A DNA stretch of 64,000 nucleotides, from positions 352,001-416,000 of the forward strand of contig CAXXVO010000008.1 in NCBI GenBank assembly GCA_963422645.2. The letters are read 5' to 3'. The position numbers were made by a program, and so were the translations under genes. Source of the stretch: Alphaproteobacteria bacterium (lineage in GTDB: Bacteria > Pseudomonadota > Alphaproteobacteria > UBA828). The stretch's first letter is position 1. Every line of letters starts with the position of its first letter. The notes under the pieces were generated by a model. The model worked only from the letters and a program-made list of their open reading frames with translations, was not told the DNA's origin and made no database searches. Below are positions 3,239 to 31,153 of the stretch, piece after piece.

Positions 3239-4147
3239 CTAGCGTCTTCCCAGCATGCGGTCGAGGTTCACCCGCCGCATCGCGAGCCACACGGCGGACC
3301 CCGCCAGCACGATCATCAGCACCGATAGCGCGGAGCCGCGCGGCCAGTTCTGCCCGAAGGTAAATGCGGATTCGATGTCCTGCGCGACGGTGACGATGAC
3401 GCCCTTGCCGAGGAACTTGGCCTCGTTAAAGGCGCCGAGCGAGATCACGAAGCAGAGCAGCGAGCCAATCAGGATTCCAGGCATCGCCAGCGGCAGCTCG
3501 ATGTCCCGAAAAACCCGCCAGCGCGATCCGCCCAGGTCGTAGGCCGCCTCGCGCGCCTCCCTGGGCACATTGCTGAGCCCCAGCAGGATGGGGAACAGCA
3601 TAAAGGGCAGGTAGATGTAGCAAATGCCGAAGACGATGGCCGGCACGTTGTTGACCAGACTCCCGGTCTCCAGACCCGTCACCACCTTGAGCGCACCGTC
3701 GAGGAAGCCGCTCTTGTCGAAGAAGAGCACCCAGCCCTGCAGCCGAATGTTCTCGGCGACGAAAAGTGGCGCCACGATCAGGAGAGTGAGCAGGTGCGCC
3801 CGGCGCCCCTTGATTCGCCTCAACGCGACCGCCAGCGGATAGCAGACGACGAGCAGGATCACGACGCTGATGAACGCAAGGAAGAGCGACCAGACGAAGG
3901 AGATGTAGAAGTCCTGCTCGACGATATCGATGTAGTTCTCGAGCGACAGCGGACCCGGTATGGAGAAGCTGCCGCGCTCCATGAAGCTGTAGATCAGCAC
4001 CAGTGCCATCGGTCCGATGAAGCCGATGAACAGAAGGATGATGATCGGCAGTGCCGCGACGAAACCTTCGGAAAGCTTCCACGGCAGAATCCTGCGCCAG
4101 GGGCGCTCCGGCTCTTCCGTCAGAGACTCGATCACCGCCTCGGTCAT
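3239..4147 (-). CDS. ABC transporter permease (PotB-like)
   Basis: EAAYDLGGSRWRVFRDIELP and C-terminal NWPRGSALS. ATG at 4147 overlaps the ATPase stop. Confidence 0.92.
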   Translation of the reverse strand: MTEAVIESLTEEPERPWRRILPWKLSEGFVAALPIIILLFIGFIGPMALVLIYSFMERGSFSIPGPLSLENYIDIVEQDFYISFVWSLFLAFISVVILLVVCYPLAVALRRIKGRRAHLLTLLIVAPLFVAENIRLQGWVLFFDKSGFLDGALKVVTGLETGSLVNNVPAIVFGICYIYLPFMLFPILLGLSNVPREAREAAYDLGGSRWRVFRDIELPLAMPGILIGSLLCFVISLGAFNEAKFLGKGVIVTVAQDIESAFTFGQNWPRGSALSVLMIVLAGSAVWLAMRRVNLDRMLGRR

Positions 4148-21932: not shown

Positions 21933-23907
21933 CTATTCAGCCGCGCAGCCCTTGGTGCACACCGCGCCGAAGGCGCCGCCGACCGCCAAGAACACGTCTC
22001 TATTGTCGCCCATCGCCGGGAGCATCCAGTGGCCGCCGGTTTCCAGTCCGGTGACCGGGCCGTAGAAGGTTCCTCCGTAGGTGCCTGTATCCCAGTTCTC
22101 CGTGTCTGTCGCGTCTGCCGTTATGGCTTCACCGGAATAGGCGCCGCCAGCCTCGATACCGCCCAACTTCAATTCAACGCCTTCACTGAGAGGAGCGAAG
22201 TTATACCACCCCAACCCTTGAGCTGCCTGCAAGTTCTCGATGGATCCGGAGATCTTGTTGGCAGTGGCGCCTTCGCCGCCGATCGTCGCCTTGAGCATGA
22301 CATCGCCCCGCACGCGGGTGAGATCGCCCATCCCCTTGGAACCGGTAGCGGCGGGGTGCACGATGTGGCCAATGGTCGTGCCCTTGAACTCGCCGGAGAT
22401 CGCCTCGTCGGGAAGCTCGTCGAACGCGTCGTAGCCGAAGTGGAACGCCTGCCAGCGGCCGGGTACGATCTGGTCATCGTGGGTGGTATAGTCCCAGTAG
22501 ACGAACAGGCCGTAGGCCGCGTAGGACAGGTAGCGGTGCTCGTCGTCATCGGCCGCCGTGCCCTGATCCGCGAGTTTGTTGTTCTCGCCGTCCGTCAATA
22601 CATTGCCCTCGTCGAAGACGCCGTAGTTCGACAGCCAGAGATTGTACTCGCCACTGGCGCCCCGGTCGGCAATCTTCACTCCGTCGCCCTCGGGATCGTC
22701 GAGATCGGGCGTGGGTTGGTCGGCATGAACCGGTAGTCTCGCCGACCAGTAGTGAACGGCCTCGCCGACGTTGGGGGACCGCGAAGGCTCGCCGAAGGTG
22801 ATCGTCAGGTCGTCGCGGTTGAAGTCGTTGCAGTTGAGAACCTCCCAGCAGTCGTCGGCCTTGGCGTCTTCAAGCGCCGTCACGTGGGCAGCCGTAAAGC
22901 CACCGGGGGTCGTTGCGGCCAGCGTCGGAAGGTCGTCCTCTTCTACTCCCAGCGCCTTCAAGCTGTCGATGTGCTTCTGCTCTACTTCGGTAGTTGCCGC
23001 CACCACCGTGAACCCACGGACTAGGTCCTGGCCATCACCCGACGACACGTCGAGGTCGTGCTTCATGTCGCCGTAGAGGATGCCCGACCCCCCCGGTTTT
23101 CCAGACCAGCCCGTCATACGTCAACTCGATCGAACTGTGCAGCGCCGCGGACTGAGCGTTGAGCGTGGCGGGGTCGTCGTCGGTGTCCACGCCTTGAACC
23201 TGAGCACGATCGCGCAGGGTGAGCGCCCGCAGAGGCAACTCGGCCGTCTTGCCTGCGCCGCCCGCCTTGATCACCGTCGTCTCTTCCGTGTCGTCGCCGG
23301 CCGCGGCATAGGGGACGGCCTCCATCCCGATCTTGAGCGCGCCGGACGCATCATAGGTGCCGTCGGACTTCTTGACCTCGCGCGGGGTCCGCACGATGGC
23401 GATATCGGAGGATGGTCCGACAGTGCCCAGCGTGTCCAAGTCGCTTGGCGCCAACGCCGGCCCCGCGGCCCAGCTCAAGGCCCCTTGCGCGGCCGTCAGA
23501 GCCGCCGCCGCATCCCCGTCCCGGTACTCCTGCGCGGCTGCCAGCGCCGCCGCCGCTTCCTCGTCGGCCGTCTCCACCTCGTCGTCGTCGTCGTCCGCCA
23601 CCTCGACGGTCTCCTCCGCCGCCGTCACGGCGGCCGCCAGGGCCGTCCGCGCCGCCGCCAGGGCCGTCCGCGCCGCCGCCCTCTCCTCCGGCGACTCGGC
23701 CGCCTCCGCGTCCGCCTCGGCCTTCATCACCGCCGCCTCCGCGGCGGTCAGGGCCGTCTCCGCCGCCGCCAGGGCAGTCTCCGCCGGCGTCGGCATCGAC
23801 ACGGCCGGAGCATCGTCGTCGTCATGTACGCAGCCGTACATGACCGCCGAGAGCACGACCACCGAACAGGCCGCCATCAGTGTGCGAGTCAGCTTCGTCT
23901 TCTTCAT
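21933..23907 (-). pseudogene. Surface lipoprotein 1 (Ala-rich stalk + TbpB-like C-terminal barrel), frameshifted at a G7 run
   Basis: Signal MKKTKLTRTLMAACSVVVLSAVMYG-C; C-terminal GTFYGP...GGAFGA. The C7 at 23088-23094 shifts the frame, and G6 would give WKTGGSGILYGDM. Confidence 0.85.
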
Positions 23908-25471
23908 GGCTCGAGGCTCTCCTCTGGTTGAAGAGGCCTCGCCCGGAGGCCTCGCTGGTGTTATGAGCTTTGCAGCCGTCAGCGTACTCGACGACTCCGT
24001 TCTTAATCCGTAACTGCCCAGGTCGTCTGATTTGTCATTTTGGGCCAGTGGATTGAGGCGTTTCTCGTTCGGAGTTGGTGGAAAGGGCTTGACGGGAATT
24101 TCGGGAAATGACTCAACAACGACATGAGCAATCCCGAGTCGCCGCGCGGCCCTTCGACGGGAGCAGCGCCCGAAACGCCCGCGCAGAAGATCGCCCGCCT
24201 GGAGGAGGAGAACGCCCGGCTTCGGGAGGAAAATGCCTGGCTTCGGCAGCAGAACGCGCGGCTGGAAGAGCAAGTCGCGCGTCTCGTCGAGCGCATCGAG
24301 GAGTTGGAGCGCCGTCTCGGCCTCAACAGCGGCAACAGCGGCAAGCCGCCTTCGAGCGATGGGCTGAGGAAGCCGAATTCGAAGCGGCGAACCCGAAGCC
24401 TGCGCGGCAAATCGGGCCGCAAGCCCGGTGGCCAGCCCGGCCACAAGGGCAAGACGCTGCGCCGCGCCGATCACCCGGATCGGGTGAAGGATCACGTCCC
24501 GGCTTCCTGCAAGGGATGCGGTTCGCCGCTTTCGGACGCGGCCAGGGCGGGAACGCCCGTCGCCCGCCAGGTGTTCGATCTGCCCGAGCCGAGCCCCCTG
24601 GAGGTGACCGAGCACCGAGCGCATGCCAAGTGCTGCGGGCATTGCGGGACGGTGACCCGGGCGGCGTTCCCCGACGGGGTGTCGGCGCCGGTGCAGTACG
24701 GCCCGCGCATTGCCGGGGTGGCGGTCTACCTTCAGCACGCTCACTTCCTGCCGGAGGATCGGCTGTCGCAGGTGATGGCCGAGCTCTTCGGCGCGCCGGT
24801 GACGGCTGCGACGTTGGCGACGATGAGCGAGAGGGCGGCCGAGCGGCTGCGGGACGCGGCCTTGCACATACAGGACCTGGCGGCGGGCACGGCGCGGGTG
24901 AAACACATGGACGAGACCGGCTTGCGGATCGGCGGTCAGACGCAGTGGCTTCATGTGATCTGCACGCCGCTGCTGGCGGCGTACCGGGTCAGCGGCAAGC
25001 GCGGCGCCCTGCTCTCGGGTGTCTCCGGCATCGTCGTGCACGATCACTGGAAGCCGTACTTCGCGATGGAAGGGGTGGAGCACGGCCTGTGCAACGCCCA
25101 TCACCTGCGGGAGTTGCAGGCGCTGGTGGACATCGAAGGGGAGGCTTGGGCCCGGCGGATGCAGCAGCTCCTGCGCCGAGCCAATCGCGCCGCCCGCATC
25201 GCGCTGGACAAGGATATCGCCGTTCCGGCGAGGCTTGTGGCGCTGATCGAGCGCCGATACGACGAGATCATCGCCGATGCGCTGGCCTTTCACGAGAGCC
25301 AACCACCGTTCTCGCCTGGCAAGAGGAAGGTAACTACCCAGGTACCCCAATCCTGAGTTGAGGACGGTGATTATGGCGGCGGCCGCGGCCTGGTTCTGCC
25401 ACCGCGATTGGTTCTTGACCTCATAGAGTTGCGGGACTATGGACTGCTCTCTCGCGTGACGGGAGCGGTCC

Positions 25472-26137
25472 ATGGGGTATTTCGGCTCGAAGGCGACAGC
25501 AGGTCTGTGCCAAGCGCTGATTGCGCTGATGCCGCCGCACTCCGTCTACATCGAAAGCCACCTTGGGGGCGGGGCGCTGATGAAGCGCAAGCCGCCGGCC
25601 GTGCGTTCGATCGGCATCGACCGCGATGCGCAGGCGCTCGAGGCCTTCGTCTGCGACTACCCGGTCGATCTGGTTCACGGCTGTGCCCATGACTTCCTGG
25701 CCTCGTTCCCGTTCCTGGGCCCGGAGCTGGTTTACAGCGATCCGCCCTATCTGCACGCGACCCGCCGCTCGGCGCAGCGCTACCGCTTCGAGTACGAGGA
25801 GGCCGGCCACGTCGCGCTTCTCGCGCTGCTCAAGGCTCTGCCCTGCCAGGTCATGATCTCGGGCCATCCGTCGGCGCTCTATGACGAGGTGCTGGCGGGA
25901 TGGCGCCGGCTGGCGCTGCAGGTCACGACCCAGGGTCTGGTGCGAACCGAGGTCGTCTGGTTCAACTACGCCCCCGACCGGATGCATTGGGCCAGCCACG
26001 CAGGCCGGAACTTCACCGACCGCCAGCGCATCAAGCGCAAGGCAGCCAACTGGGGCCGGCGCTACCAGGCCTTGCCGCCGGGCGAACGCCTCGCCGTGCT
26101 CGCCGCCATGATGGCCGTCGAGGCCGAAGACACGTGA
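25472..26137 (+). CDS. DNA adenine methyltransferase, Dam/D12-like, compact
   Basis: GYFGSK, YIESHLGGGA (SAM-binding motif I), IGID, VYSDPPY (motif IV), MISG. Confidence 0.88.
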   Translation: MGYFGSKATAGLCQALIALMPPHSVYIESHLGGGALMKRKPPAVRSIGIDRDAQALEAFVCDYPVDLVHGCAHDFLASFPFLGPELVYSDPPYLHATRRSAQRYRFEYEEAGHVALLALLKALPCQVMISGHPSALYDEVLAGWRRLALQVTTQGLVRTEVVWFNYAPDRMHWASHAGRNFTDRQRIKRKAANWGRRYQALPPGERLAVLAAMMAVEAEDT

Positions 26138-27672
26138 CGGTGTCGCACTGGCACGAAGACCTCGCCGCCCGTAACGAGGCCTTCTGCTGCCTGAAGGAGC
26201 TTCTCGAGCCATCATCCCTCGCAACCACTGTCGTCGTTGCCGTCCGGGAATGGGGGCAGGGGCTGCTGCGATCAGCCACCGCGCTCGCCCGGGAAAATGC
26301 CGCACTCGAGCAGGAGAACGCGGCCCTGCGCGAGCGCATCGCCGAACTCGAGCGCAGCGCGGCCCTCAACAGCACCACAAGCAGCAAGCCCCCCGCCAGC
26401 GACGGGCTCAAGAAGAAAAGCGGAGCCCAGAGGCGCACCCAAAGCCAGCGCGGAAAGTCCGGCGGGCCCAGTGGCGGCCAGCCCGGCCACAAGGGAACCA
26501 CCCTCGCGCGGAGCGACAGCCCGGACCGTGTCGTCGATCACCACCCCTCCACCTGTTCCGGCTGTGGCGTCGAGCTCTCGGACGCCGACCGGCAAGGCGC
26601 GCCCGCCTGTCGGCAGGTCTTCGACGTACCCGAGCCGCAGCCTCTCGAGGTCACCGAACACCGCGCCCATCGCTGCCTCTGCGGCGCATGCGGCACGCTG
26701 ACACGAGCCGCCTTCCCGCCGGGCGTCACCGCCCCGGTCCAGTACGGCCCTCGCATCACCGCTTGGGTGAGTTACCTGCTGTACGCCCAGTTCGTGCCCG
26801 AGAAGCGTCTGGCCGAACTCATGAGCGACATCTTCGCGGTGTCCATCTCCACTGCCACGATCGCCGCCATGGGCCGGCGCACAGCGCAGCGCTTCGAGGG
26901 CTTCCTCGACCATGTCGCCGATCTGATCCGCACGCAGGCGCCGGTCAAGCACCTCGACGAGACCGGCCTGCGTATCGCCGCCCGTACCCGCTGGCTCCAT
27001 GTGCTGTGCACCCCGTTGCTCACCGTCCTGCGCATCGGCGAGGGACGCGGCGATGTCGAAAAGAACCTGAAAGGCATCCTCGTCCACGACGACTTCGCCC
27101 CCTACTTCACCATCAAGGGCGTCCGCCACGGCGCCTGCAACGCACATCACCTGCGCGAACTCCAGGCCCTGATCGACATCGAGAAGGAGGAATGGGCGGC
27201 GAGCATGCACCGCCTGCTTCAGCGCGCGCGCAGGGCCGCCCGCTTCGCCCGTGAGAAAGACCGTCAAGTCCCCGCCTCCCTGGTGGCCCGCATCTCAAGG
27301 GCATGGGACCGTATCCTCGAAGAAGCCATCGCCTTCCATGAGGCCCAACCGCCGCTCCAGATCGCAAAGCGAGGGCGAAAGAAACGCCGCATCGGCCACA
27401 ACCTCGCGCGCCGCCTTCAAAAGCATAAGGAGGGCTGCCTGCGCTTCCTCACCGACCTGCGCACGCCGTTCACGAATAACGAGGCGGAGCGTGACATCCG
27501 TATGAACAAAGTGCATGAGAAGATCTCAGGCGGCTTCCGCTCCCTGCAAGGCGCCTGCAACTTCGCCGGAATGCGCAGCGTCATCGTCACCGCTCGAAAG
27601 CAAGGCTGGAACATCCTGCAAATCCTGGCGCACCCGGAACCGATGCAGCTGATCCCTATACTGCGCTCCTGA
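26134..27672 (+). CDS. IS66-family transposase of IS-B
   Basis: GTG start overlapping the MTase stop (GTGA); NSTTSSKPPASD, CSGC/CLCGAC zinc finger, HLDETG, VHDD, CNAHHLREL, FTNNEAERDIR. Confidence 0.92.
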   Translation: MTVSHWHEDLAARNEAFCCLKELLEPSSLATTVVVAVREWGQGLLRSATALARENAALEQENAALRERIAELERSAALNSTTSSKPPASDGLKKKSGAQRRTQSQRGKSGGPSGGQPGHKGTTLARSDSPDRVVDHHPSTCSGCGVELSDADRQGAPACRQVFDVPEPQPLEVTEHRAHRCLCGACGTLTRAAFPPGVTAPVQYGPRITAWVSYLLYAQFVPEKRLAELMSDIFAVSISTATIAAMGRRTAQRFEGFLDHVADLIRTQAPVKHLDETGLRIAARTRWLHVLCTPLLTVLRIGEGRGDVEKNLKGILVHDDFAPYFTIKGVRHGACNAHHLRELQALIDIEKEEWAASMHRLLQRARRAARFAREKDRQVPASLVARISRAWDRILEEAIAFHEAQPPLQIAKRGRKKRRIGHNLARRLQKHKEGCLRFLTDLRTPFTNNEAERDIRMNKVHEKISGGFRSLQGACNFAGMRSVIVTARKQGWNILQILAHPEPMQLIPILRS

Positions 27673-28390
27673 ACTTCTCCGGCTCATCCTGAGTATCGCT
27701 GTCCTCTCATCTTGTTCGCGACGCGGCGTTCATCATCCTCTCGCGCTCAAGAGAGTAGGCACCCCCGCGGCGTGGGGGCGTTGACGCAAAAGGAACTGGC
27801 TTGTTCCATAAGAGAGAGGGGGTACCTGGGCAGTTACAGAGGAAGAAGCGCCGGAAGCGAAGGATCGGTCACAATCTGGCCTTGAGGCTGCGCGACCACA
27901 AATGCGCGGTGCTCCGGTTCCTGATCGACCTCGAGGTCGGGTTCACGAACAACGAGGCCGAGCGCGACCTTCGGATGATGAAGCTGCGCCAGAAGATCTC
28001 CGGGGGCTTCCGGTCCGCGCAGGGGGCCGAGAACTTCGCCATCCTGCGCAGCGTCATCACCACCGCCAGAAAGCAGGGCTGGAATATCATCGAAGCCCTG
28101 ACCAGCCCATCGGATCGGCTCATCGCCACCGTCAAGTGCGCGTAAGCTCACCTGGCACGGGTTCTCCAACAGCGGAGCCATTCTCATAAACGATCATGGT
28201 CGACGCCGTGCTGGACCACCCCATAGAATGAAAATCGGTGCCCGTCGCGCGGACGGACTTCGGGCCACATCGGGGTAGCTTACCGGTCGCAGTCCGCAAG
28301 AGGGGCATCGTGAGCTGTGAAACCCGGCGACCACAGAGGAGCACACGGGCGTCGCGTGGGTAGCGTTGTGCCGAATCCCAGAGAATTTTT

Positions 28391-30279
28391 GTAACTGCCC
28401 AGGTCGTCTGATTTGTCATTTTGGGCCAGTGGATTGAGGCGTTTCTCGTTCGGAGTTGGTGGAAAGGGCTTGACGGGAATTTCGGGAAATGACTCAACAA
28501 CGACATGAGCAATCCCGAGTCGCCGCGCGGCCCTTCGACGGGAGCAGCGCCCGAAACGCCCGCGCAGAAGATCGCCCGCCTGGAGGAGGAGAACGCCCGG
28601 CTTCGGGAGGAAAATGCCTGGCTTCGGCAGCAGAACGCGCGGCTGGAAGAGCAAGTCGCGCGTCTCGTCGAGCGCATCGAGGAGTTGGAGCGCCGTCTCG
28701 GCCTCAACAGCGGCAACAGCGTCAAGCCGCCTTCGAGCGATGGGCTGAGGAAGCCGAATTCGAAGCGGCGAACCCGAAGCCTGCGCGGCAAATCGGGCCG
28801 CAAGCCCGGTGGCCAGCCCGGCCACAAGGGCAAGACGCTGCGCCGCGCCGATCACCCGGATCGGGTGAAGGATCACGTCCCGGCTTCCTGCAAGGGATGC
28901 GGTTCGCCGCTTTCGGACGCGGCCAGGGCGGGAACGCCCGTCGCCCGCCAGGTGTTCGATCTGCCCGAGCCGAGCCCCTTGGAGGTGACCGAGCACCGGG
29001 CGCATGCCAAGTGCTGCGGGCATTGCGGGACGGTGACCCGGGCGGCGTTCCCCGACGGGGTGTCGGCGCCGGTGCAGTACGGCCCGCGCATTGCCGGGGT
29101 GGCGGTCTACCTTCAGCACGCTCACTTCCTGCCGGAGGATCGGCTGTCGCAGGTGATGGCCGAGCTCTTCGGCGCGCCGGTGACGGCTGCGACGTTGGCG
29201 ACGATGAGCGAGAGGGCGGCCGAGCGGCTTGCGGGACGCGGCCTTGCACATACAGGACCTGGCGGCGGGCACGGCGCGGGTGAAACACATGGACGAGACC
29301 GGCTTGCGGATCGGCGGTCAGACGCAGTGGCTTCATGTGATCTGCACGCCGCTGCTGGCGGCGTACCGGGTCAGCGGCAAGCGCGGCGCCCTGCTCTCGG
29401 GTGTCTCCGGCATCGTCGTGCACGATCACTGGAAGCCGTACTTCGCGATGGAAGGGGTGGAGCACGGCCTGTGCAACGCCCATCACCTGCGGGAGTTGCA
29501 GGCGCTGGTGGACATCGAAGGGGAGGCTTGGGCCCGGCGGATGCAGCAGCTCCTGCGCCGAGCCAATCGCGCCGCCCGCATCGCGCTGGACAAGGATATC
29601 GCCGTTCCGGCGAGGCTTGTGGCGCTGATCGAGCGCCGATACGACGAGATCATCGCCGATGCGCTGGCCTTTCACGAGAGCCAACCACCGTTCTCGCCTG
29701 GCAAGAGGAAGAAGCGCCGGAAGCGAAGGATCGGTCACAATCCGGCCTTGAGGCTGCGCGACCACAAATGCGCGGTGCTCCGGTTCCTGATCGACCTCGA
29801 GGTCGGGTTCACGAACAACGAGGCCGAGCGCGACCTTCGGATGATGAAGCTGCGCCAGAAGATCTCCGGGGGCTTCCGGTCCGCGCAGGGGGCCGAGAAC
29901 TTCGCCATCCTGCGCAGCGTCATCACCACCGCCAGAAAGCAGGGCTGGAATATCATCGAAGCCCTGACCAGCCCATCGGATCGGCTCATCGCCACCGTCA
30001 AGTGCGCGTAAGCTCACCTGGCACGGGTTCTCCAACAGCGGAGCCATTCTCATAAACGATCATGGTCGACGCCGTGCTGGACCACCCCATAGAATGAAAA
30101 TCGGTGCCCGTCGCGCGGGCGGACTTCGGGCCACATCGGGGTAGCTTACCGGTCGCAGTCCGCAAGAGGGGCATCGTGAGCTGTGAAACCCGGCGACCAC
30201 AGAGGAGCACACGGGCGTCGCGTGGGTAGCGTTGTGCCGAATCCCAGAGAATTTTCACAGCAAGAACCTGGGCAGTTAC
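28391..30279 (+). mobile_element. IS-A copy 4 (frameshifted transposase 28505-30011)
   Basis: Complete TIRs, 1889 bp, the same +T as copy 1 (29229-29230); followed by CTTAATCC matching the left flank of copy 3. Confidence 0.95.
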
Positions 30280-30741
30280 CTTAATCCATACTCTAGCACC
30301 TCAACAGATCATCGCCAAGTTGTCTACTTGCCGATGATCACCACTCCGAAAGGCCCCGATACCAGGACCATCCCGACGGCGAAACCCTTGCGATCCCCAG
30401 CATTTCCAAGGCCTCCGCCCCGTCCCGCCGAATACCGCCTGCACATCCTCGCGGCGTCCCTCCTGCCGTCACGGGCGTGCCGTACCCGAATCACGCCACA
30501 TTCCTGCCGTCTTTGCAAGCGTCAAATTTGCCACGCGGCAGGAAATTCGGAACAGCCAAATCCCCTGCCCGACGGCGCCCGGCAGAGCCAGTCCCGTCGC
30601 CCTGCTTCCGCAGTGATGCCGGTGAATTCCGCCGAACCGGGGGTCGCGGCGGACCGAGGCGAACGGACGGCGGCACGGCAACGGCCGCCGTCCGCAGAGC
30701 AATGGAGACTGCCCGTGGGATGGGTGTCCGGTGGGTGGCGC

Positions 30742-31153
30742 TCAGCCTTCATCGGTGTCCGCATTACGGCGGCCGTCGACTGACGGCGGCCGTAATGCGG
30801 ACACCATCAAGTCGGCATCCAGCTTCGGCTCGTCCCATCTCCGGATGGCGCGCTGCCACAACCCCAGCATGGCCTGAAAACCCGGATCGTCGAAGTGAAT
30901 GAACATGGAACGTATAGAGCCGGTTGACGACCTGCCGCATCAGGTCGCGCATCGCGTCGTCGTCGAAGTGCGACACCCGAGGCCAGGGAATGCGGTTGCC
31001 GTCCGCGCCGACCACGACCACATCGGAATAGTCCCCGGTGCGGCTGACCGGGACGATGCCCGCGTGGATATCCTCGAGCTTTGTGTTGCGCACGCACGTC
31101 ACGGCCATCAGCTTGGACAGGGCAGCAAGGGTCTCGCGCTTTTCCTCATCCAT
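30742..31153 (-). pseudogene. Conserved hypothetical protein, frameshifted by a TTCA tandem duplication (~30895-30902)
   Basis: MDEEKRETLAALSKLMAVTCVRNTKLEDIHAG...YTFHVH, continuing as FDDPGFQAM..WDEPKLD in another frame. Confidence 0.6.
30754..30805. repeat. 52-bp near-perfect inverted repeat
   Basis: GGTGTCCGCATTACGGCGGCCGTC-GACT-GACGGCGGCCGTAATGCGGACACC: 24-bp arms with 1 mismatch. Confidence 0.85.

Follow-up and report, generated by a model that had tools for sequence, protein, structure and literature searches.

An IS66-family insertion sequence carrying a portable Dam-like cassette, a candidate Upf31-type autoregulator of its transposase operon

Insertion sequences (ISs) of the IS66 family have terminal inverted repeats (TIRs) that start with GTAA and duplicate 8 bp of target DNA. 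Here we describe IS-B, an IS66-family element in a 64,000-nucleotide stretch of contig CAXXVO010000008.1 from an alphaproteobacterium of the UBA828 lineage (the window, that is, the whole stretch of DNA that was analysed). IS-B carries a gene for a Dam-like protein of 221 amino acids (aa) ahead of its transposase, and it lies within a second IS66-type element, IS-A. The described single-transposase IS66 members have the same DDE_Tnp_IS66 domain with zf-IS66 and DUF6444, the same GTAA ends and the same 8-bp duplication. IS-A is one such member, while IS-B differs in that a Dam-like gene and this gene's own promoter separate the left end from the transposase. We take this single-transposase subgroup of IS-B and IS-A to be ISBst12-like. 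E. coli Dam and DpnM, N6-adenine methyltransferases of the D12 class, have motifs I and IV and the fold in common with the IS protein, but the IS protein is without their recognition domain of about 100 residues and has an added C-terminal helical hairpin. Host Dam controls IS10, IS50 and IS903 by acting at GATC (PMC9296519). In these elements, too, a Dam-type protein is linked to control of a transposase promoter, and a fold-back block may be common to them and IS-B. However, their methylase is the host's, whereas IS-B encodes its own Dam-like protein, for which methylation is only putative. Transporter ISs (tISs) are said to be restricted to the IS1595 and IS66 families (10.1101/2021.05.26.445724). 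The tISs of ISfinder/TnCentral are like IS-B in size and in having an extra gene inside the inverted repeats. Set against the category as such, the extra gene of IS-B differs in being one conserved transposase-coupled cassette that spans transposase families.

Another described system is Upf31 of the IncP-1beta plasmids (pBP136, R751 and pB3), which has the same motifs as the IS protein and the same promoter design, TTGACA followed by a palindrome with a 10-nucleotide (nt) spacer. The pBP136 study (bioRxiv 10.1101/2024.02.05.579024) reports that Upf31 shows no Dam-type methylation in a GATC digestion test in a dam- strain, and no kinetic signal in SMRT (single-molecule real-time) sequencing in methylase-free ER2796 'under our experimental conditions'. 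According to the same preprint (bioRxiv 10.1101/2024.02.05.579024), Upf31 represses upf31p about 50-fold, from 4.76 to 0.09 XylE units. Repression requires residues 173-225, the likely operator consists of inverted CAGCATCG repeats, and AlphaFold suggests that the C-terminal part is a dimerisation domain contacting KorB. Upf31 is a solitary gene of the plasmid backbone and is proposed there to act via KorB; the IS form, in contrast, heads a transposase operon. The half-site is CATAG in the IS form and GCATCG for Upf31, and the IS-borne proteins form a clade of their own.

The features of IS-B and its surroundings are collected in Table 1. The TIR arms are 95% complementary (18/19) and the octamer AGAGGAAG stands on both sides, so that the bounded IS66 element with 19-bp TIRs and an 8-bp target-site duplication (TSD) described in an earlier note on this DNA holds. 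This octamer is single in the uninterrupted IS-A copy, where 29704-29711 aligns opposite both TSD copies in the repeat registers. Inside are two genes on the same strand, the Dam-like open reading frame (ORF) and then an IS66-type transposase. The earlier note had seen only a DPPY protein and a transposase overlapping by GTGA, with no restriction gene; ORF and Pfam scans agree, and neither the ORF list nor a Pfam scan of the element gives a restriction-like ORF. IS-B has neither tnpA nor tnpB, the genes of the classical IS66 form; the Dam-like gene is its only other ORF with homologues, and IS-B is therefore placed with the IS66 forms without tnpA and tnpB. Its membership in the family is given by the DDE transposase of IS66 type, the GTAACT start of the TIRs and the 8-bp TSD. 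The transposase matches NF033517 (IS66) at E 3.6e-86 and PF03050 at E 4.4e-41, and also DUF6444 and zf-IS66. Its relatives align from residue 1 with 76-91% identity. The stop codon of the 221-aa ORF and the GTG start of the transposase (26134) share GTGA, and the same 4-nt overlap is found in 27 loci of this clade. No slippery heptamer for a programmed frameshift fusing both ORFs was seen in a reading of 26100-26137 by eye.

Table 1. Features of IS-B and of the surrounding IS-A copies (positions in the window)
Feature	Position	Strand	Basis
IS-B, complete IS66-family insertion sequence, 2508 bp	25330..27837	+	TIRs, TSD, genomic copies
Left TIR GTAACTACCCAGGTACCCC, 19 nt	25330..25348	+	repeat search; GTAACT.. 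termini also on related elements in other genomes
Right TIR, 19 nt, 18/19 match to left	27819..27837	-	repeat search
TSD AGAGGAAG, left copy, 8 bp	25322..25329	.	sequence
TSD AGAGGAAG, right copy, 8 bp	27838..27845	.	sequence
Promoter-like region: TTGACC 25415-25420, 17-nt spacer, TATGGA 25438-25443	25415..25443	+	conservation
Proposed operator, palindrome CATAG-N10-CTATG, overlaps promoter	25422-25441		conservation
Leader inverted repeat: -10 region and right half-site pair with Shine-Dalgarno-like GGGAG and ATG	25437..25475	+	RNAfold; role inferred
Upf31-type, Dam-like 'methyltransferase' gene, 221 aa (MGYFGSK...SDPPY...)	25472..26137	+	ORFs, profiles, fold model
IS66-family DDE transposase, 512 aa, GTG start within GTGA	26134..27672	+	Pfam and NF profile matches
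Left part of IS-A copy 1 (IS66-type, one ORF), split by IS-B	24010..25329	+	ORFs, Pfam, repeats
IS-A copy 1, right part, without last ~23 nt, abuts IS-A copy 2	27846..28390	+	repeat search
IS-A copy 2, 1889 bp, transposase frameshifted	28391..30279	+	ORFs, repeats

The pair of genes recurs in many other genomes. A word-indexed search returned 3706 relatives of the Dam-like protein, the closest of them about 220 aa long and 70-92% identical, and an exhaustive search gave 5660 clusters at 50% identity (E 0.001 or better). Scanning one genome per species yielded 362 stretches that encode relatives, of which the best 80 loci were taken further. Their source assemblies are alpha-, beta- and gammaproteobacterial, Tectimicrobiota, Binatia, Planctomycetota, Bacillota, Chloroflexota and Acidobacteriota, and one genome often contributes several loci. 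A transposase follows directly downstream on the same strand, with at least 60% query coverage, in 73 of the 80 loci, and truncated remnants follow in 4 more. The other 3 loci were matched by none of the five transposase queries: one reaches the contig end, one is interrupted by another transposase and one has a DDE_5 transposase by Pfam. The best-matching query in the 77 loci is IS66 in 68 (two deep clades of 28 and 40, about 30% identical to each other), DDE_5 in 6, ISAs1-like in 2 and DDE_Tnp_1 in 1. These loci show the cassette ahead of at least four kinds of DDE transposase. The junction between gene and transposase is either a 4-nt overlap (GTGA or ATGA) or a gap of 3-36 nt. Within other genomes the repeated unit measures 2.25-2.45 kb and holds just the two genes. 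Its ends read GTAACT[AG]C.. in IS66 types and AGCTCGACTTTGT.. in the DDE_5 type, and on re-reading of the printed ends, perfect 8-bp duplications were found in 6 of 7 IS66-type representatives.

The Dam-like protein is 66-72% identical across IS66 types whose transposases drop to about 30%, and it keeps 82-85% identity beside DDE_5 transposases. At the nucleotide level, IS-B resembles elements with unrelated transposases only across its positions 86-811, a stretch that begins with the -35 box and ends with the stop codon. The unit common to these elements is promoter, leader and gene, a portable cassette and no one-off capture. On a maximum-likelihood tree built from 52 proteins, the IS-borne genes fall into a single clade (98/97 support), separate from two plasmid homologues. 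Transposase type switches at least 10 times on this protein tree, and well-supported branches force at least 3 switches for DDE_5. The ratio of nonsynonymous to synonymous substitution rates (dN/dS) is 0.12-0.33 for the Dam-like gene, which is under purifying selection, and 0.24-0.40 for the transposase. Pairs of the two genes had been proposed in the earlier note as something to look for across genomes, with a single accidental capture as the alternative. The downstream transposases (73 of 80 loci, with 4 remnants) and the dN/dS of 0.12-0.33 exclude such a capture. The spread of the element is patchy, with a match at E 1e-40 or better in 4 of 401 sampled genomes of the class (its own genome included) and in 0 of 3 of the same family.

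The conserved unit opens with a palindromic promoter. The pattern cTTGAC-n-CATAG-N10-CTATGg stands about 50 nt before the start codon in every element type. Of 74 distinct upstream sequences, 66 fit a loose form of this operator pattern; the spacer is 10 nt without exception, and the half-sites covary (CATAG/CTATG versus CGTAG/CTACG). The genome of IS-B (5.9 Mb in 23 contigs, 67% GC) has 59 exact sites, all of them within IS-B copies, where about 1.5 are expected from composition. Between promoter and gene lies a leader that can fold back on its start codon. In RNAfold the leader of this copy reaches -27.1 kcal/mol. For 32 non-redundant leaders the mean is -16.2 kcal/mol and z is -2.0, with z below -2 in 17 and a paired start codon in 27 of the 32. 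The fold from the assumed own transcript start is weak (-5.5), and all these values are single-sequence folds. In IS10 and IS50 a fold-back structure blocks read-through transcripts, and the IS-B leader hairpin resembles this block. Leaders differ in their stems. Those of the gammaproteobacterial loci L047, L061, L071, L072, L077, L086 and L090 have hairpin arms TTGATCC...GGATCAA with two GATC in the stem, so host Dam could act on them, while alphaproteobacterial leaders, the one in the window included, have a different stem, GCTCTC...GGGAGC.

Both protein and promoter have counterparts on plasmids. In the plasmid collection 196 records hold relatives (134 of them conjugative), all with less than 60% identity, and no IS-type copy was found in this collection. 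The plasmid relatives (45-56% identity) are solitary genes without transposases; on the IncP-1beta plasmid pB3, upf31.0 is located after trbP and upf30.5. Over its full length the 221-aa protein is 45% identical to pB3 Upf31 and 56% identical to a Xanthomonas plasmid homologue. Upf31 shares the GGG, DPPY and C-terminal RIKRK...ER motifs with the IS protein, and residues R184, K188-R189-K190, W194 and E205-R206 in the C-terminal part do not vary between Upf31 and the IS proteins. On pB3 the upf31 promoter is TTGACAGCATCG-N10-CGATGCTG, that of the Xanthomonas plasmid is CAACATAG-N10-CTATGCTG, and two CATAG-type sites are found on an IncP Photobacterium plasmid. Of the 5 plasmid homologues examined, 3 have the same palindrome with its 10-nt spacer, about 50-60 nt upstream. 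These sites show the IS-B promoter palindrome to be homologous, at the level of sequence, to that of plasmid upf31. The IS gene belongs to the Upf31 family by full-length homology that includes the repression region, and by its own promoter with a 10-nt-spacer palindrome after the -35 box.

The homologous palindrome at the IS gene points to regulation of transposase expression. We lean modestly towards the IS gene encoding a Upf31-type operator-binding autoregulator of the transposase operon, because its protein and operator are both homologous to those of one tested relative, Upf31. The proposed mechanism is as follows. Into the space that separates its left end from the transposase, IS-B, a single-transposase IS66 element, would have taken up the cassette, which would comprise a promoter with the palindromic operator TTGAC-n-CATAG-N10-CTATG, the leader hairpin and the 221-aa Dam-derived protein of the Upf31 family. 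The protein, probably dimeric, would use its conserved helical C-terminal region to bind the palindrome and would repress its own promoter. As the mRNA of the 221-aa gene also yields the transposase, translated directly after it, transposase supply would come under negative feedback. Acting in trans, this feedback would reach all copies and serve as a copy-number governor. The leader hairpin would block translation of read-through transcripts arriving from outside the element.

Several points weigh against autoregulation by a Upf31-type protein. No residues in the whole family are better conserved than those of the active site, a conservation that a pure repressor would not need; methylation may be the main job of the protein. 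The function is carried over from a relative that is 45% identical. The SMRT-negative host of Upf31 carried no operator, and methylation of a rare site could escape such an assay. KorB, the proposed partner of Upf31, has no counterpart in an IS. The loose operator pattern misses 8 of the 74 upstream sequences. A simple sigma-70 scanner calls no promoter in IS-B because the -10 box is TATGGA, and RNAalifold on a MAFFT alignment of 23 leaders gives no consensus structure because MAFFT leaves the two leader types out of register.

A bolder form of the autoregulator gives methylation a part. Strict conservation of the catalytic residues argues that some S-adenosylmethionine- or adenine-dependent chemistry would persist, and the intact GGG and DPPY site may still methylate an adenine, for instance one in the operator. 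Here the cassette would be a portable epigenetic governor, a Dam-derived enzyme whose recognition domain was swapped for a dimeric operator-binding tail and which both represses and methylates its own promoter palindrome. Transposase would then be made only briefly, after replication or on entry into a naive cell, and unrelated IS families would have recruited the cassette repeatedly since it allows high copy number without host killing. We regard this fuller scheme as possible but doubtful.

The conserved catalytic residues also fit a working orphan DNA adenine methyltransferase that acts at many sites, whether within the element, at its ends or in the host genome, for protection from restriction, for control of end activity as by Dam for IS10 and IS50, or for a change of the methylome. 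The 221-aa protein has the intact motifs HLGGGA (residues 30-35) and SDPPY (residues 89-93), and ten columns, G32, D90, P91 and P92 among them, are invariant across 46 diverse relatives (38-51% identity). The protein itself has no Pfam match at E 0.01 or better, and its score against TIGR00571 (Dam) is 22 bits, against a cut-off of 115. PF02086 is passed by 15 of the 16 relatives scanned (38-51% identity), and phrog_56 'DNA methyltransferase' is matched as well. A narrow alignment searched against PDB sequences returned only chance matches to tetratricopeptide repeats and a weak match to DpnM, and the wider profile of the 46 relatives was needed for the distant search. It matches DpnM at E 2.8e-10 and E. 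coli Dam at E 4.6e-6. The AlphaFold model (predicted local distance difference test 80, predicted template modelling score 0.73) has a Rossmann core from residue 1 to about 165, and residues 181-219 form a helical hairpin at the C-terminus. In fold comparison E. coli Dam and DpnM match it best, with a template modelling score of about 0.55. The predicted homodimer scores 0.23, where the mark is 0.42, and this counts neither for nor against a dimer. A further point for an orphan enzyme is the predominance in the wider family of conjugative plasmids (134 of 196 records), on which protective methylases are common.

Nevertheless, a freely acting methyltransferase appears unlikely. The profile aligns in two pieces, to DpnM 18-79 and 184-267 and to E. 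coli Dam 19-70 and 157-238. It skips the DNA-recognition domain of Dam and DpnM, about 100 residues between motifs I-III and IV, which is absent here. This bears out the compact methyltransferase with a short segment between motifs I and IV and a basic C-terminal extension that the earlier note had read. Upf31, the only tested relative found, has the same motifs and gave neither GATC methylation nor a SMRT signal. The IS66- and DDE_5-type elements share the protein (82-85%) despite unrelated ends (GTAACT.. versus AGCTCGACTTTGT..), and therefore the protein is not tuned to the ends. A chromosomal IS is already modified by its host, which makes protection of transposition intermediates from restriction, as put forward in the earlier note, an odd need. 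The self-methylating transposon of the same note survives in part. Its bounded element, the methylase-like gene inside the ends and the coupling to the transposase stand, whereas methylation of the element, its intermediates or the host is not supported, given the absent recognition domain and the negative results for Upf31.

IS-B is an active element and no relic. Its genome holds 104 matching segments, 36 of them full-length at 99.7% identity or better, and 22 of these 36 copies are framed by a perfect 8-bp duplication. All 36 full copies keep an intact Dam-like ORF; the transposase is unbroken in 28 and broken in 8. IS-A, with 66 full copies, covers 3.5% of the genome. IS-B has a target bias: of its 36 full copies, 15 are found no more than 80 nt from IS-A sequence, and the octamers that it duplicates are rich in AT, against a genome of 67% GC. 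This bias would suit a transposition co-factor that acts on DNA by bending, base flipping or target choice at the transpososome, in the place of TnpA/TnpB, as would the position of the gene upstream of the transposase and the stronger conservation of the Dam-like protein compared with the transposase. However, one protein serves four unrelated transposase types with different ends, which makes a specific transpososome contact unlikely, and the sole conserved DNA site found is its own promoter, one per element. We consider such a co-factor improbable. Least probable of all is a passenger cassette without a role for the element, a selfish or host-directed rider in the manner of tISs: IS66-family ISs with passenger genes are a recognised category (10.1101/2021.05.26.445724) and the plasmid relatives stand alone without transposases, but position, orientation and transposase coupling are fixed in 77 of 80 loci, different transposases recruited the cassette repeatedly, and the gene is under purifying selection no weaker than that on the transposase.

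Self-control of ISs is usually ascribed to weak promoters, frameshifting, host Dam and truncated transposases. If the Upf31-type autoregulator is right, the cassette would add a new and widespread layer, encoded by the element itself and serving IS66, DDE_5, ISAs1-like and DDE_Tnp_1 transposases in several phyla. It would also be an example of regulatory modules moving between transposon families. It would offer a function for a family that counts 5660 or more clusters at 50% identity and whose proteins are named 'DNA adenine methylase' in the sources, a naming that bears on surveys of methylomes and of restriction-modification systems. The IS cassette ties to the recent puzzle of plasmid Upf31 and provides a simple test system with one promoter, one protein and one transposase. 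The literature searched, which did not extend to ISfinder and the main IS reviews, has no description of the cassette, of the link to Upf31 or of the spread across transposase families.

Two further scans concern the locus itself. A 166-nt contig covers part of the transposase in 1 of 4 runs, and as that run is only guessed to be RNA, it is uninformative on expression. An Rfam scan of 23000-31000 at gathering thresholds gives no match.

IS-B interrupts an IS-A copy in the window. The IS-A transposase frame 24124..25329 is split by IS-B and resumes at 27838..28145. Over 363 aa the transposases of IS-A and IS-B share 58% identity. IS-A has the outer 14 bp GTAACTGCCCAGGT; the right end of IS-B is identical and the left end has 1 mismatch, as the earlier note had stated along with the inactivated IS-A. 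Copy 1 of IS-A runs straight into the left end of copy 2, which is complete but for a one-base frameshift of its transposase relative to copy 1. The octamer CTTAATCC borders the block 24010-30279 on both sides (window 24002-30287). The block has the look of one IS-A that entered another close to the latter's right end, with a later deletion between the repeated tails.

Elsewhere in the genome, IS-B recurs at the same few AT-rich spots in the IS-A ends, outside coding sequence; examples of the flanks are GAAATGAC, GATTTGTC and GAATTTTC. Many IS-B copies are broken at shared internal points (positions 2071-2076, about 2093-2100 and 2329-2333) by a third element with ends CAGACTTCCTGA. About ten right-hand IS-B fragments begin at 2071 and four left-hand fragments end at 2076. 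These shared breakpoints reflect either a hot spot of the third element or a composite that was copied as a whole. A second IS-B-like lineage lies at C3:188097-190078, about 100 bp from a full IS-B, and is 82% identical over positions 108-2076. In other genomes, the DDE_5-type elements L040, at 3472-4002 (-), and L051, at 3611-3955 (-), have a conserved small ORF on the opposite strand. It lies upstream of the Dam-like gene inside the ends and shows a weak, below cut-off match to DUF3024 (E 0.0012).

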